A DNA stretch of 64,000 nucleotides from an uncultured delta proteobacterium (GCA_963695895.1 CAVOIK010000033.1:28426-92425); one strand, 5' to 3'. Shown: positions 10,136 to 55,668, counted from the stretch's first letter. The notes: generated by a model from the sequence alone, not told the origin. Numbers and translations are program-made.

Positions 10136-10248
10136 TGACCGGCAAGTGCCCCGCAAGCCCCGTCCTTGAGGGGGCGGCCAAGGGGCACGAATATAATTGG
10201 GAAAGTACCTTACCGGGAAGCCACGCTCTTTAGGGCGTGGAGCTTCCC
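10136..10248 (+). repeat. two-hairpin intergenic repeat, subtype B, copy B4
   Basis: Sequence is TGACCGGCAAGTGCCCCgcaagCCCCGtCCttgaGGgGGCGG..GGGGCACgAATATAATTGGGAAAGTACCTTACCGGGAAGCCACGCtcTTTAGGGCGTGGAGCTTCCC. Confidence 0.9.
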
Positions 10249-10304
10249 AATTTTTATCCCTTGCAAATTTTGTCACAAAAAGTAAAAACTTTGACACAAA
10301 ACAC

Positions 10305-10744: not shown

Positions 10745-11174
10745 CAATGATCAGGGCCTGTCTATCTGACAACGTTCTTTAAACAGGTTATTAACAAGAA
10801 GGTGTCGTCACAGACTGATAGAACCACAATATCTTGTGCTGGGACAAAGAAGAATAACAAACCTGCAACTATTTGAAATTACATATATTTCTTGTATGGA
10901 TGTCTTCCTTTAGCAGTGATTTTCCAATCGATTTGGGGAAGTACAGGCCGTTACCACACTTTTTTCCACAGGATTTTCACATCTGAGTACACCTCCTCTC
11001 TAGCCCTTGATGCGAGGACATTTAGCGGATGCCGCCGCTGCTTTCCAGTGATGGTAGAAGGATTGCTGAGATCTCTGTGCTGAGGGCATTGCAGAATCAA
11101 CGTCAGCGCAATCCTGACTTCGCATCATCAGGTTTGGAGGCCATTGGAGCAATTCCTTCTTTTCTAGACGGTAC

Positions 11175-11488
11175 GCATTCAAGGTTGGCGGCCCGACCCG
11201 TGTGGCCTTCTCCGAACCCCTGTACGGCGGGTCTCCAGACGAATGGGTTGCCGGGGTTGTGGAGCTGCGAGATCGTTTCCGAGGCAATCCGTTCTCGCAG
11301 TTGGACAAGGAGAGGTGCCGCCCTGCCTACCGGTAGGCAGGCACAGGGTTTCTCCGAAGACCACACTGGTCCGTCCGCCTGTCACGGGCAAGTCGGCTGG
11401 ATGCCCCGCGGGGAAGAAGGCCGACCCTATAATCATATCTACATTTCGCGGAAGCCCCTGCCGTGTGGGCGGAAAGCTTCATTTTCCC
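11175..11488 (+). repeat. long variant of the subtype-A repeat: about 200-nt structured 5' domain plus A core (copy A5L)
   Basis: Aligns along its whole length with 55142..55476. The 5' domain is closed by GTGTGG...CCACAC and CCCTGT...ACAGGG. The A core starts at 11382 (TCACGGGCAAGTCGGCT) and ends ...GGAAAGCTTCATTTTCCCA. Confidence 0.85.
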
Positions 11489-11603
11489 ACCCTTGAATGG
11501 GCACTCTGGACGTAGGAATCTGGTTGAAAGACCAGGTGGTTTTTGTTATCGTTCATTCAATCCAAAGAATGTCTCAGCAACTCAGGAAAATCAGGATAAT
11601 AAG

Positions 11604-13538
11604 ATGAGTGGACGGAAACAAGTCATTCTCGGGACGGCAGGCCATATTGATCATGGGAAGACTTCTCTCGTGAAAGCGCTGACGGGAGTCGACACCGATC
11701 GGTTGAAGGAAGAAAAAGAGAGAGGAATTACGATTGAGTTGGGATTCACGTTCCTCGACCTGCCAAGTGGCATCCGTTTAGGGATCATCGATGTACCCGG
11801 TCATGAGAGGTTTGTGAAACACATGGTAGCAGGGGCTTGGGGCATTGATTTCGTTGCGCTGGTCGTGGCGGCTGACGAAGGCGTGATGCCTCAGACGAGG
11901 GAGCACCTCGATATTTGTACTCTTTTGAAGATAAAGAAAGGTCTTGTCATTCTCACCAAGATAGACCTTGTGGATCGCGAACTCTTGGAGTTGGTCACGG
12001 AGGAAGTGAGAGAGGTTGTTGAGCCAACGTTCTTGAAAGAGGCGCCCATCCTCCCTGTGTCTTCTGTAACGGGAGAAGGGATTCCCGAACTGATTTCCGC
12101 ACTGGATGACCTTGCTTCGCATGCAGAGGAGAGATCATCGGAGGGGCTCGTCCGGCTGCCCATCGATCGGGTGTTTGTCATGAAGGGATTTGGGGCAGTT
12201 GTGACAGGAACGATGATTTCAGGAGATCTTTCCGTGGGAGAAACCGTAGAAATCCTTCCTTCCAAGGCCCAGGGAAAAGTGCGAAACCTTCAGGTGTATA
12301 GCCAGCCTGTTGAACGAGCGGTGGCAGGACAACGAACAGCCGTCAATCTTCAGGGGGTGGAGACCTCTGCCATCGAAAGGGGAGAGGTTCTCGTGCGTCC
12401 CCACACCCTGAGCCCAACTCAGGTTATCGATGCCTATCTTGAGTATCTGCCGAGCGCACAGCGATCCCTAAAACACCGGACCCATCTAAGATTCCATACG
12501 GGTGCGGCACTGACCACGGCCTCGGTGTATCTCCTCGATCGTGACGAGTTAGCTCCAGGAGAAGGTGGATGGGTGCAATTCAGACTGGATCGACCCCTTG
12601 TCACACTGCCACAAGACCGTTTTGTGATCCGTACATCCTCAGCCATCCAGACGGTTGGAGGAGGAGTCATTCTGGATACACAACCGGCCAAGCACAAGCG
12701 ATATTCTCCTTCGGTGGGTAAGGATTTAACCGTCCTCCGGGATGGAACAGGAGAGCAAATCCTTGGTCTCCATGTCTACCGCTCGGGTCCAGGAGGGGTG
12801 GGGTTTCAAGAACTTGCAGGCCGGGTGTCCATGTCACCGAAGGACATTCAGACGATTCTCCAGAAGATGGTCGAAAGGCGGGGGGTCCTTGTCGTTGATT
12901 CTGAGAAGCTGAAAGTCGTTGCCAAGGAACACTGTCAACATCTCCAGGAAGCCATTCTAACCCAACTCACAGAATTTCATCAGCGATTCCCGATGAAGCT
13001 AGGGTTTGCGAAAGAGGAACTCAGGACCAAGCTCCCACCAGAGATGGACGTGAGACTGTTCCAAAGTCTTCTGAGTGAGTTGATCGAATCTGGGGAGGTG
13101 GTGCTGGACAAGGAGTGGCTTAGACTCTCGAGTCACCACGTCTCATCAGGCGATGAAAGGGGATTGATCAAACGTGTCGAGGAAGCCCTCGTGAAGGCTG
13201 GACTCCAACCTCCGTCTCCAAAGGAGTTGGCAGAAGCATGGTCTGAGCCGGAGGGAACACTTCAGACGGTGTTTGACTATCTCGCCCGTGAGGGGGTTCT
13301 CGTGAAGATCAAAAGCGGGATGTACTTTCACAAGATCCCTTTCGGAAAGTTGAAAGAGGAATTGATTGTTTATCTAAGAACCCATCAAGAAATCACGACG
13401 CCTCAGTTCAAAGACATCACGGCGGTTTCCAGGAAGTTTGCCATTCCGCTCATCGAGTACTTTGACCAAATCAAATTAACTCTCCGTTTAGGAGACAAGA
13501 GAGTCCTCCGCTCCACGTCTCAAAGTTCTTCCACGTGA
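11604..13538 (+). CDS. selB: selenocysteine-specific translation elongation factor SelB
   Basis: [48 protein letters not shown], plus the long winged-helix C-terminal extension. The ATG at 11604 was chosen because the track ORF (11463) begins inside the repeat. Confidence 0.9.
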
Positions 13539-52171: not shown

Positions 52172-52351
52172 GGGTCTTGCCGTCCCCAACGGGGCTTTGC
52201 TCCAGGCCAAGAGAGAATAAAAGGCCAAACCTCCAACATAAAAAAGAAGGAAATCCGATAACATTATAAATTTAATGAGGAAAAATGCAATAGGAAAAAT
52301 AGTTCTTGGCACTTACAGCCGTAAATACTGTCGTATACAAGCGTCACTGAC

Positions 52352-52599
52352 TACTAACAGAGTGTTGGGAAAGTGATCTTTTGCAGGTTGCTCAAAAAGG
52401 GCCAGAGGCAAGGCTTCCGAAGTCCTGAGGTGTGAGGCGTACTTTGCGGTACGCCGCAACAACGCCTGCGCGCCGAAGCGCTTCAGCGCGCAGGCGACGA
52501 AGGACCTGCCCACAGGCAGGGACAACGCTGCAGATAGCCATTTTTCAGCAACCTGTTTCCTCAACCGAAGGGTTGACACCTCACCCTATCTCTGTTAGC
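52352..52599. repeat. about 250-nt nested-palindrome element sharing modules with the two-hairpin repeats
   Basis: Outer pairs are CTAACAGAG (about 52353) / CTCTGTTAG (about 52590). A long stem is formed by CAGGTTGCTcAAAAAGG (52384..52400) and CCATTTTTcAGCAACCTG (52538..52555). Inside are GGCGTACtttgcgGTACGCC, the 32-nt perfect palindrome GCCTGCGCGCcGAAGCGCTTCaGCGCGCAGGC, and CCTGCCcacaGGCAGG. Confidence 0.6.
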
Positions 52600-52641
52600 A
52601 TTCAAAATATTTTTTAGATTCAACAAAAAAGGAGTGGTTTC

Positions 52642-53469
52642 TTGATCAAGGTCGCTGGGGTTCAGATGTTCTGCTCCGAGGACAAGGAGAGGAATGTTGA
52701 CAAAGCGGTGAGACTTGCTCAGATCGCGGCAGAAAAAGGAGCCCAGATCATCTGTTTTCAAGAATTATTTTCCACGCACTGGTTTCCAAAGGAGATGGAT
52801 CGCAAGCATTTCACTCTGGCAGAGAACCTGAAGGGTCCTTCCTTAGGGAGAATGCGTGAAGTTGCAAGAACTCATGAGATTGCTTTGGTATGCCCGTTCT
52901 TTGAAGAAGGAGAAGAGGGGGGTTTTTACAACACCGCGGTGGTTTTCGATGCCGGAGGAGAGATTCTGGGGCGCTATCGAAAGATCCACGTCCCTCAGAT
53001 TCCCCTCTGGGAGGAAAAATACTACTTTGCACCTGGAAACCTGGGGTTTCCTGTCTTTCACACGAGGTTTGCCGCCATCGGAATCCAGGTCTGCTGGGAT
53101 AATTTTTTTCCGGAAGGATCCAGGATTCTGGCGTTGAAGGGAGCACAAATCATTTTTTCTCCCACAGCAGCGGCTTTCGCGTCTCAGAAGAGATGGGAAA
53201 CAGTCATTTCAGGAAATGCCATTTCGAATGGGGTGTTCGTGTTTCGTGTCAATCGGGTTGGGAGCGAAGAAAAACAGGATTTCTACGGAAAATCATTCTG
53301 TGTCTCACCCGAAGGAGAAATGGTCGATCGTCCCACGGGGATGAAAGAAGGGATTGCTTTGGTAGAGATGGACCTCGGAGATGTCGAAAGGGTGAGGAGG
53401 GAGTGGTCTTTTTTCAAGGATAGAAGACCAGAGACCTACGGCGAGATCCTGGGAGAAAGGGAACTTTAG
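52642..53469 (+). CDS. carbon-nitrogen hydrolase (nitrilase superfamily) protein
   Basis: VAGVQMF...ICFQELF (catalytic Glu), RKIH (Lys), GIQVCWD (Cys). TTG start with AAGGAG upstream. Confidence 0.8.
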   Translation: MIKVAGVQMFCSEDKERNVDKAVRLAQIAAEKGAQIICFQELFSTHWFPKEMDRKHFTLAENLKGPSLGRMREVARTHEIALVCPFFEEGEEGGFYNTAVVFDAGGEILGRYRKIHVPQIPLWEEKYYFAPGNLGFPVFHTRFAAIGIQVCWDNFFPEGSRILALKGAQIIFSPTAAAFASQKRWETVISGNAISNGVFVFRVNRVGSEEKQDFYGKSFCVSPEGEMVDRPTGMKEGIALVEMDLGDVERVRREWSFFKDRRPETYGEILGEREL

Positions 53470-54161: not shown

Positions 54162-55145
54162 TCAGGAAGGGGTTTTGTTCTTAAAGACGTTTTCTTGGGC
54201 CCACTCGATGTCCTTTTGGATCCGGGTGATGAGCTGTGCAATAGAATCGAATCGGGCTTCGTCTCGGATCCTTCTAACAAAGTCAATCTGAATTTCCTCT
54301 CCGTAGATGTCCTCATCGAAATCAAGGATATAGACTTCTGACGAGATCTTTCCTTCTCCTTCCGTTTGAAATGTAGGATTCCAGCCGACGTTGGCGACAC
54401 CCTTGAAGGATTGCCTCTTCCACAGGACCTCAACGGCGTAGACTCCGGGCAGAGGAGTTAACTCCTCGGAGATTTCAAGATTGGCTGTTGGAAATCCGAG
54501 GAGGTGTCCCCTTTTTGCTCCCTCGATGACCTTTCCAAGAATAGAATAATGTCGTCCCAGGAGTTTGGAGGCTTTCTCAACTTGGCCGTTCTTGATCAGT
54601 TCTCGAATCTTGGAACTGCTGACCGTCGTTCCTTCGATGATCAGGGAGTCTATGATTTCAACCTGAAGGTTGAACAGGCTTCCAATCTGTTTCAAAATTT
54701 GAGGATTCCCTTTATTATTTTTTCCAAAATGGTAGTTGAATCCCACAATCACCTTTTGAGCCCCCACTTTTTCAATGAGGATGTTCTTAACAAAATCGGA
54801 AGGAGACATCTCTGAGAAAGTCTTTGTGAATTCGATGCAGAGGAGGACATCCATTCCTGATTGCTCGATGAGCAAGATCTTCCTTCTGAAAGGAGTCAAA
54901 AAAGGAGGACAGGATTTGGGTGATAGGACCTTCAACGGGTGAGGCTCAAAAGTAATGACCACGGATTCCCCGCCCATCCTTGAGGCTTCTGTCTTTACCC
55001 TCTCGAAGATTTTCTGATGCCCGAGATGGAGACCATCGAAGTTACCCAGGGTAACGACTGGGTTCACCAGTCGCCTCGACAAGCGATCAATGCCGAAAAT
55101 CGTTTCCACGTCAACAGTCCTCGAAGGTGCACCGCTTGTAAGCAT
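54162..55145 (-). CDS. ribF: bifunctional riboflavin kinase / FMN adenylyltransferase
   Basis: VVTLGNFDGLHLGHQKIF, and the C-terminal kinase domain GFPTANL...GVYAV...NVGWNPTF. Confidence 0.9.
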   Translation of the reverse strand: MLTSGAPSRTVDVETIFGIDRLSRRLVNPVVTLGNFDGLHLGHQKIFERVKTEASRMGGESVVITFEPHPLKVLSPKSCPPFLTPFRRKILLIEQSGMDVLLCIEFTKTFSEMSPSDFVKNILIEKVGAQKVIVGFNYHFGKNNKGNPQILKQIGSLFNLQVEIIDSLIIEGTTVSSSKIRELIKNGQVEKASKLLGRHYSILGKVIEGAKRGHLLGFPTANLEISEELTPLPGVYAVEVLWKRQSFKGVANVGWNPTFQTEGEGKISSEVYILDFDEDIYGEEIQIDFVRRIRDEARFDSIAQLITRIQKDIEWAQENVFKNKTPS

Positions 55146-55476
55146 TCACGGGTGGCGACTCGGCCAGTGTGGCCTTCTCCGCACCCCTGCACGGTGGGTC
55201 TTTAGACGAATGGGTAATCGGGCTTGCGGGGGTACAAGATCGCTTCCAAGGGGTTTCGTTTCTGCAGTGAGACAGGTAAAGGTGTCGCCCTGCCTACCGG
55301 CAGGCAGGCACAGGGTTTCTCCGAAGACCGCACTGGCCCGTTCACCTGTGACGGGCAAGTCGGCTGGATGCCCCGGCTTCCTGCCCGTAGCAGGGGCGGG
55401 GAGGAATGCCGACCTTGTAATCATATCTACATTTCCCGGAAGCCACGGCCTGCGGGTGGAAAGCTTCATTTTCCCA
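55142..55476 (+). repeat. long variant of the subtype-A repeat (copy A15L)
   Basis: Collinear with 11175..11488: shared GCATTCA, GGtGGCG..C.CG.CC.GTGTGGCCTTCTCCG.ACCCCTG.ACGG.GGGTCT..AGACGAATGGGT ... CGCCCTGCCTACCGG.AGGCAGGCACAGGGTTTCTCCGAAGACC.CACTGG, then the A core from 55348. The ribF start codon (55145..55143) lies in the shared left edge. Confidence 0.85.
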
Positions 55477-55515
55477 TCCTTGTCTGAATGCTTACTATTA
55501 CTTCTCACGAAGTGC

Positions 55516-55543
55516 TTGACTTTACAACAAAAAAATATAAAAT
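55516..55543 (+). promoter_or_regulatory. possible sigma-70 promoter for tRNA-Leu
   Basis: TTGACT (55516..55521), 16-nt spacer, TAAAAT (55538..55543), about 37 nt upstream of the tRNA. Confidence 0.35.
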
Positions 55544-55579
55544 AAAGTATTCTCGTTTTCAATTGATCTGTTCCAAGAT

Positions 55580-55668
55580 GCCGAAGTGGCGGAATTGGCA
55601 GACGCGCTAGATTCAGGGTCTAGTGGGATGTAAGTCCTGTGGGGGTTCAAGTCCCCCCTTCGGCACCA
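55580..55668 (+). tRNA. tRNA-Leu (anticodon CAG), encoded CCA
   Basis: Hand-folded cloverleaf. Acceptor GCCGAAG/CTTCGGC. Anticodon stem CTAGA/TCTAG with loop TTCAGGG. Long variable arm. T-arm GGGGG-TTCAAGT-CCCCC. Discriminator A plus CCA. Confidence 0.9.

Follow-up and report, generated by a model that had tools for sequence, protein, structure and literature searches.

A MITE family upstream of promoters and the probably composite nature of two long repeat variants in an uncultured delta proteobacterium

TnGBS, ISLre2 and ISKra4-group Mutator-like elements are documented to insert a constant distance upstream of sigma-A/sigma-70 -35 boxes (Guerillot et al. 2014, PMC3942029); their offset is 15–17 bp, their direct repeats measure 8–9 bp, and those whose ends are symmetric go in either way round. 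Elements of the IS66 family are characterized by inverted repeats of 20–30 bp that begin with GTAAGCG and by 8-bp direct repeats (PMC11946415), and ISDge4, an active element of the ISBst12 group, has the ends GTAACTGCTCAGCA and an 8-bp direct repeat (PMC12898284). Bacterial MITEs, as reviewed (PMC10969869, PMC3184786), are small and non-coding, possess terminal inverted repeats that allow a long-hairpin fold, duplicate their target over a fixed length, and occupy many intergenic positions, with filled and empty sites among orthologous loci.

The repeat family described here shares all of these MITE features at a size of ~225 bp. It departs from other bacterial MITEs in the unusual invariance of its subterminal blocks, in its recurrent role as host of other small repeats at fixed internal positions, and in that its cognate insertion sequence was not found in the DNA we searched. 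Like TnGBS, ISLre2 and ISKra4 elements, it lies at a fixed distance upstream of -35 boxes, has a direct repeat in the 8–9-bp range and inserts in both orientations; the differences lie in the tips (GTAA, compared with GGG or GAG), in the offset (19 bp, compared with 15–17 bp) and in autonomy, since those elements are autonomous insertion sequences or integrative conjugative elements whereas ours is a 225-bp non-autonomous one. With the IS66/ISBst12 group, represented by ISDge4, it has in common a GTAAGC start (GTAACTGCTCAGCA in ISDge4, GTAACCATTCAGTCA in the MITE), inverted repeats of ~20–30 bp and 8-bp direct repeats.

We analyzed a 64,000-nt stretch of DNA from an uncultured delta proteobacterium (hereafter, the window), which belongs to the ENA metagenome contig ERZ25039502:contig_139130 and in which a first-pass annotation had singled out two long variants of a small repeat, subtype A, one upstream of selB (copy 1) and the other between ribF and tRNA-Leu (copy 2), each with an additional 5' domain of about 200 nt. 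We propose with high confidence that two unrelated mobile repeats make up each long variant: an outer MITE and an inner subtype-A core that was inserted later (Table 1).

Table 1. Coordinates of the two composites, their parts and the adjacent promoter-like sites in the window
Feature	Coordinates	Strand	Sequence or basis
Target-site duplication, left, copy 1	11163..11170	+	TCTAGACG; 7/8 match to 11505-11512
Copy 1, composite of 334 nt: MITE (237 nt) plus nested subtype-A core	11171..11504	+	alignment with copy 2
Left terminal inverted repeat, copy 1	11171..11188	+	GTACGCATTCAAGGTTGG; short 18-nt variant, 4 nt fewer than the 22-nt consensus; 15/18 complementary to 11487-11504
Left subterminal conserved block, copy 1	11200..11223	+	GTGTGGCCTTCTCCGAACCCCTG, with TTC-TCC-GAA; near-zero column entropy in 76 copies
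Optional 20-nt hairpin insert, copy 1	11322..11341	+	CCTGCCTACCGGTAGGCAGG
Right subterminal arm, copy 1	11342..11384	+	CACAGGGTTTCTCCGAAGACCACACTGG...CCTGTCA; repeats the left arm in inverted form, apart from the TCC centre; ends at the TCA where the core is inserted
Nested subtype-A core, copy 1	11385..11481	+	97 nt; CGGGCAAGTCGG...GGAAAGCTTCA
MITE 3' tail and right terminal inverted repeat, copy 1	11482..11504	+	TTTTC CCACCCTTGAATGGGCAC; homologous to the tail directly after ...CCTGTCA in stand-alone copies
Target-site duplication, right, copy 1	11505..11512	+	TCTGGACG
Promoter-like site upstream of selB, sigma-70 type	11524..11552	+	TTGAAA-17-TATCGT; promoter scan; -35 starts 19 nt after the end of copy 1
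Target-site duplication, left, copy 2 (decayed)	55130..55137	+	CACCGCTT; 4/8 match to 55496-55503, all mismatches transitions
Copy 2, composite of 358 nt: MITE (241 nt) plus nested subtype-A core	55138..55495	+	alignment with copy 1; profile search
Optional 20-nt hairpin insert, copy 2	55289..55308	+	CCTGCCTACCGGCAGGCAGG; 64-nt version at this place in orthologous L054
Nested subtype-A core, copy 2	55352..55468	+	117 nt; missing from the orthologous MITE in L054
Right terminal inverted repeat, copy 2	55474..55495	+	CCATCCTTGTCTGAATGCTTAC; one mismatch to the minus-strand pattern GTAA[GC]CATTCAGTCA
Target-site duplication, right, copy 2	55496..55503	+	TATTACTT
Promoter-like site of tRNA-Leu	55516..55543	+	TTGACT-16-TAAAAT; promoter scan; -35 starts 20 nt after the end of copy 2

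The end-to-end alignment reported by the first-pass annotation was reproduced. Over the regions compared (11140-11520 and 55110-55510), the two composites, 11171-11504 and 55138-55495, align at ~85% column identity with a single 21-nt indel that lies within the core; a repeat search of the window joined them over 238 ungapped nt at 82% identity, and the 20–23-mers specific to the 5' domain, of which 0 are expected by chance, were each found at exactly two places in the window. All of the motifs named in the annotation were found where it had placed them: in copy 1, GTGTGG at 11200 and CCACAC at 11363, CCCTGT at 11218 and ACAGGG at 11343, and TTCTCCGAA at both 11208 and 11350 (the left one reads TTCTCCGCA in copy 2), together with CCTGCCTACCGGTAGGCAGG and the tail common to both copies, AAAGCTTCATTTTCCCA.CCTTG. 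The extents it had given, 11175..11488 and 55142..55476, mark real regions but fall short of the true units, which end in inverted repeats that had gone unnoticed. The flanks of the two composites are unrelated to each other, so that this is not the segmental duplication of ordinary flanking sequence that the annotation had named as refuting its reading. Copy 1 was matched by the family profile at 11172-11384 (nhmmer, 178 bits) and has an ortholog of 92% identity in metagenome locus L065 (metagenome loci are numbered with the prefix L).

The outer unit is a non-coding, non-autonomous DNA transposon (MITE) of ~225 bp. It starts with GTAAGCATTCAGTCACGGGTGG and ends with the complement of GTAACCATTCAGTCAAGGGTGG, so that it is bounded by terminal inverted repeats of 18–22 bp, the 22-bp consensus GTAAGCATTCAGTCACGGGTGG facing the reverse complement of the right end, GTAACCATTCAGTCAAGGGTGG; the terminal six bases (tip GGTTAC) were 84–92% conserved over 88 non-redundant flanks. 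Inside these ends the two arms are inverted copies of each other in the register i+j=214, save for some conserved mismatches and a centre at which TCC stands opposite TCC. The internal loop of the first-pass annotation, both strands of which do read TTCTCCGAA, is in fact a 3x3 mismatch within these inverted arms, and the strands read alike because the arms are inverted around the TCC-opposite-TCC centre. The left subterminal block, GTGTGGCCTTCTCCGAACCCCTG, lies outside the search pattern used to collect the copies. The internal blocks of the MITE are more conserved than neutral decay would lead one to expect, which counts against our preferred explanation.

A third, optional insert within the MITE is the 20-nt CCTGCC...GGCAGG hairpin. 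The annotation had listed its AGGCAGG module as a part of the domain; the module is present in both window copies but in only 27 of 76 copies overall, being missing from the other 49. It occupies one fixed column, measures exactly 20, 34 or 64 nt where present (hairpins nested within hairpins), and differs in form or size between orthologous loci; L054:1246-1534 is one of the metagenome examples. The same CCTGCC...GGCAGG module also occurs inside A cores. Other inserts were seen as well, and MITE copies tolerate inserts of 20–130 nt. The right inverted repeat of the MITE in L070 (~10148-10282) and L133 (from 965-1223 on) harbours, after CCACCCTTG, a subtype-B repeat (GGCCGGCAAGTGCCCCGTAAGCCC...). 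A further insert of ~130–290 nt (…GAGAAG…AAAAAATCAAAATCC…) lies inside the right inverted repeat just after TTGACT in L045 (7716-8226), L058, L080, L083, L091, L135, L071 and L130; in L045, a perfect duplication, CGTTCGCT, surrounds the 511-nt composite.

We also considered a coding reading of the element and rejected it: substitutions between the window copies numbered 12, 14 and 16 by codon position, showing no periodicity, though frame +0 is open in both copies. Two ORFs, 11029-11496 (155 aa) and 55090-55545 (151 aa), cross the composites in different frames of the element; an annotation would probably mistake them for genes.

Homologues of the 5' domain were sought in metagenome contigs by scanning with one exact 18-mer (CAGGGTTTCTCCGAAGAC), which matched at least 120 loci, ~100 of them holding real homologues of the domain at 67–92% identity. 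Since every metagenome copy was ascertained through this 18-mer, nothing can be read from the conservation of its own block, and divergent relatives are under-represented. A profile search likewise gave ~100 MITE copies, several per contig in places, and 88–101 non-redundant flanks were available depending on the analysis. Further copies of the domain, whose absence, together with that of a transcript, the first-pass annotation had named as refuting its reading, are thus numerous in metagenome contigs. The same 18-mer gave 27 matches in genome contigs, all of them chance matches of 18–31 nt; three patterns gave no real match in viral contigs, and a BLAST search of plasmids with the consensus gave none.

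In nearly all of the homologues listed, the alignable part comprised only query positions 1-214, that is, the 5' domain without the core. The subtype-A core was missing from ~90% of the ~100 listed copies and was found in only four independent loci among them. A multiple alignment that included the 3' flanks showed core-less copies running from CCGCCTGTCA straight into TTTTTCCACCCTTGACTGAATGGTTAC, so that CCTGTCA is followed directly by the tail, and most stand-alone copies end in ...CCTGTCATTTTTCCACCCTTGACTGAATGGTTAC. Because core-less copies run straight into it, the tail that follows the A core in the window is the natural continuation of the 5' domain. What the annotation had described as an extension past the usual right end of subtype A is explained in the same way, since the 3' tail and the right inverted repeat of the MITE continue there after the core.

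The core (CGGGCAAG...GCTTCA) is accordingly an insert at the TCA of the right arm, ...CCTGTCA^TTTTTCC, where stand-alone copies pass directly from TCA to TTTTTCC. Short copies at 430, 2024, 23466, 26816, 45413 and 55744, as well as those on the minus strand, belong with the core of copy 1 in one family. At the same ribF/tRNA-Leu locus as copy 2, L054 carries the MITE at the same site and without the core, with the junction CCGCCTG-TCA-TTTTTTC, and because of this orthologous pair we can state that the A core is a secondary insertion, later than the MITE. Copy 2 is ~92–96% identical to L054 and 82% identical to copy 1. Both window MITEs resemble core-less copies more than they resemble each other, and this indicates that the two A cores were most likely acquired independently at the same TCA. 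The same composite of MITE and core occurs at other sites in L073 and L115.

These observations also refute the suggestion that subtype A has its full-length or master form in the long variants, from which the short A cores would have arisen by deletion. The core does sit at exactly the same internal position in both window copies, and both share sequence beyond its usual right end, as a master copy would require. However, the great majority of listed 5'-domain copies are contiguous across the junction and have no core, the orthologous L054 lacks it, and no MITE sequence is found at the ends of the window's short A cores. The nesting can, moreover, be reversed: in L032 a MITE lies inside an A core, flanked by a perfect AGCCGACC duplication. 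The annotation's other proposal, that the domain is a separate entity joined to the core, thus holds in part, the entity being a DNA transposon and not a demonstrated RNA.

The A core itself resembles REP/BIME-type or palindrome-associated repeats in being hairpin-rich and high in copy number, in having no terminal inverted repeats and in inserting beside a short fixed motif (TCA here), a likeness examined on one filled/empty pair. Both junctions of the core carry TCA, and orthologous loci of ~90% identity differ in which of its internal hairpin modules they possess. These features suggest that the core inserts site-specifically, by a mechanism that does without terminal inverted repeats. Small structured repeats of the A and B types number ~17 in the 64 kb of the window, mostly intergenic and on both strands.

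The mobility of the outer unit is recorded in its flanks. The 8-mers on either side of the MITE were identical in 14 of 59 unique copies, matched at seven of eight positions in another 6 and at six of eight in 9; the mean match was 5.15 of 8 positions, compared with 2.09 in control (mismatched) pairings, and no base preference was apparent within the duplication over 88 flanks. The family has a target duplication of constant length, no coding capacity, and many unrelated insertion sites with filled and empty orthologs.

Those orthologs were reached through homologues of the window's ribF, whose closest named relative is in a Thermodesulfobacteriota MAG (64% identity), a distance that places the organism only loosely. 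The ribF/tRNA-Leu site is filled by the MITE with a core in L089, L029 and L120, as in the window; it is filled without a core in L054 and L208 (the ribF of the latter is 86% identical); and it is empty in L210-L213. At the empty loci (ribF 87% identical in L210/L211 and 68% in L212/L213), the ribF start and the tRNA-Leu promoter region are contiguous, and spacer lengths fit exactly one 8-bp duplication: AAGAAACA in L210, where the window (minus strand) has AAGTAATA ... AAGCGGTG. Conversely, between the CN-hydrolase and response-regulator genes a MITE is present at L208:3363-3544, L210:5138-5335 and L211:3369-3436, and none is present in the window (~52312-52642). We also observed in L210 (537-2478) that a partial duplicate of the 5' end of tRNA-Leu, with its promoter, adjoins ribF, and that an ORF with collagen repeats (1196-2221) lies between this duplicate and the complete tRNA-Leu gene; this region looks like an element integrated at a tRNA gene.

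MITE copies, in the window and in loci L029-L148, favour sites at which the element end falls 19 bp upstream of a TTGACA -35 box, and do so in both orientations. Going outward from either end, a hexamer with no more than one mismatch to TTGACA was found 17–21 bp away, with a mode of 19, in 34 of 101 non-redundant flanks, compared with 2 of 68 at a control offset, and an unbiased position profile peaked only at +19 to +23. A -10 box (at least four of six positions matching) followed 16–18 nt further on in 19 of the 34 hexamer flanks and in 15 of the 67 other flanks. Among the 34 copies for which both flanks were available, the hexamer lay on the right only in 11, on the left only in 9, on both sides in 4 and on neither in 10. 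The 19 bp correspond to the 8-bp duplication plus ~11 bp between the element end and the -35 box. This preference accounts for the position of the window copies just upstream of the selB (11604-13538, Pfam) and tRNA-Leu (55580-55668) promoters. The tRNA-Leu promoter is also present in the empty site of L212, indicating that the promoter predates the insertion. That a flanking TTGACA is read as a copy of the element's own end (pseudo-end targeting) stays a speculation, as the orientation of the hexamer relative to the cut does not fit.

Another reading makes the 200-nt domain a structured non-coding RNA of regulatory or ribozyme-like type, with helices under selection and the A core fused to it in one transcript. 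A long hairpin can indeed be drawn, and over 65 pairs in 76 copies 83.5% of the cells pair, compared with 81.8% in shuffles. Both-side changes were found in 143 cells, compared with 96 +/- 7.5 in shuffles, and the covariation score was 0.153, compared with 0.131, values that none of 500 shuffles reached. Near-invariance also marks the left-arm block, through which no copies were ascertained, and insertions are confined to few positions, as might be expected of a constrained RNA. The pairing excess, however, is just 1.7 percentage points, lies mostly in the terminal repeats and is measured against shuffles that ignore the relatedness of the copies; two ends that co-evolve with one protein would vary alike.

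Other evidence is harder to reconcile with selection on RNA helices. Conserved mismatches persist (C.U, C.C, and TCC opposite TCC). The compensatory inner helix pointed out in the first-pass annotation holds between the two window copies and breaks down across the family, where the 76 copies have U-A in 47, C.A in 21 and C-G in 5. In Rfam searches only the tRNA-Leu gene (tRNA) passed the gathering threshold, with nothing credible at E-values up to 10; single-sequence folds of the window copies were unremarkable (z-scores of about -1.6), and RNAalifold kept 8–17 pairs on two alignments. The tolerance of 20–130-nt inserts argues in the same direction, as does the presence of copies upstream of promoters both ways (right only and left only in nearly equal numbers), which leaves no consistent transcribed strand. 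We therefore regard a structured RNA as very improbable; an RNA function of the 5' domain is unproven and, given the promoter placement, unlikely. The long structure that had been seen is the inverted-repeat symmetry of a MITE, to which an RNA- or DNA-hairpin constraint may be added.

A related suggestion was that a recombinase or nuclease encoded nearby uses the domain as its guide or scaffold, in the manner of bridge RNA or omega RNA. Its size of ~200 nt and the two identical TTCTCCGAA loops superficially recall a two-loop scaffold. Yet these "loops" are invariant, unlike the variable segments of guides, and inverted repeats with 8-bp duplications indicate DDE transposition. The copies in the window neighbour genes for HU, selB, ribF, tRNA-Leu and a histidine kinase, and no recombinase, nuclease or transposase gene adjoins either long variant. 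No gene family recurs beside the metagenome copies: the largest neighbour clusters comprised 4–6 loci, mostly orthologous ones (82–100% identity), and those sampled with a Pfam match were a ferredoxin, an ABC transporter, a transglycosylase and an RNase_H_2/TPR protein, three others having no match. Taken with the Rfam result, this leaves a guide scaffold scarcely credible.

How the composites might have formed can be outlined on the reading of a MITE with a later-inserted core. A DDE transposase encoded elsewhere would bind the terminal inverted repeats and probably also the two highly conserved subterminal TTC-TCC-GAA blocks, and would make cuts at the target with an 8-bp stagger; the subtype-A core followed, inserting at the TCA of the right arm. 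Judged from the element ends alone, the GTAAGC... start together with the 8-bp duplication points to a parent transposase of the IS66 family, ISBst12-like. The MITE ends begin GTAAGCA and extend over 22 bp, agreeing with the canonical GTAAGCG at six of seven positions, and the direct repeats are of the 8 bp typical of the family. No autonomous element with the MITE's inverted repeats was found among pairs 1–3 kb apart in the 120 metagenome loci, or in the window, the viral contigs or the plasmids, and a screen of 1.4 Mb of DNA gave no IS66-like transposase motifs. The metagenome locus L128, examined as a candidate autonomous partner, has only the right arm; it represents a copy that is truncated or has diverged, and its hairpin is larger.

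Alternatively, the MITE could be real and its parent a Mutator-like transposase of the ISKra4/ISLre2 type, not an IS66 one. Such elements are the only ones known to target promoters, inserting at a fixed distance upstream of the -35 box as the MITE does, and the placement of the window copies matches their pattern. Their 8–9-bp direct repeats and the insertion of symmetric-inverted-repeat members in both directions fit as well, and ISKra4-group elements have been found in Nitrospirae, Proteobacteria and an uncultured Desulfobacterium (PMC3942029). Our searches of the literature found no report of promoter-upstream targeting for IS66 and none of such placement for elements with GTAA ends. Against a Mutator-like parent, the tips listed in that study start with GGG or GAG (e.g., ...GCACCC and ...ACGCCC) and its listed ISKra4 members have 9-bp direct repeats, where the MITE has GTAA tips and an 8-bp repeat; neither GTAA tips nor the MITE's repeat was found among the entries searched in its supplement tables. 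The offset also differs, and the GTAAGC start with an 8-bp repeat fits IS66. On balance we consider a Mutator-like parent rather unlikely.

We tentatively entertain, as a possibility that goes beyond the MITE assignment, a promoter-homing transposition system with IS66-type ends, whose transposase would place the element 19 bp upstream of the sigma-70 -35 box in either direction, with the subterminal TTC-TCC-GAA palindromes as its protein-binding sites. It could represent a second, independent origin of promoter targeting beside the Mutator-like TnGBS, ISLre2 and ISKra4 elements, or an unrecognised branch of them.

With these findings the 5' domain no longer stands as a candidate for a new structured RNA or guide scaffold, and the repeat landscape of the window proves to be one of nested mobile elements. 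For annotation this matters, since inverted repeats look like RNA structure and the open frames that cross both copies could be taken for genes. What we describe is a new family of MITEs with a small repeat nested inside, ordinary in kind save for its homing to positions upstream of promoters, a placement previously documented only for the Mutator-like TnGBS, ISLre2 and ISKra4 elements and hence the feature of wider interest. Should an IS66-type transposase prove to mobilise the element, DDE transposases would choose their targets by promoter more widely than has been documented, and the ~100 natural insertion sites would form a ready data set on how a transposase reads a promoter. If the promoter-homing reading is true, the element displaces the UP-element region of many promoters and could rewire transcription genome-wide in this lineage.
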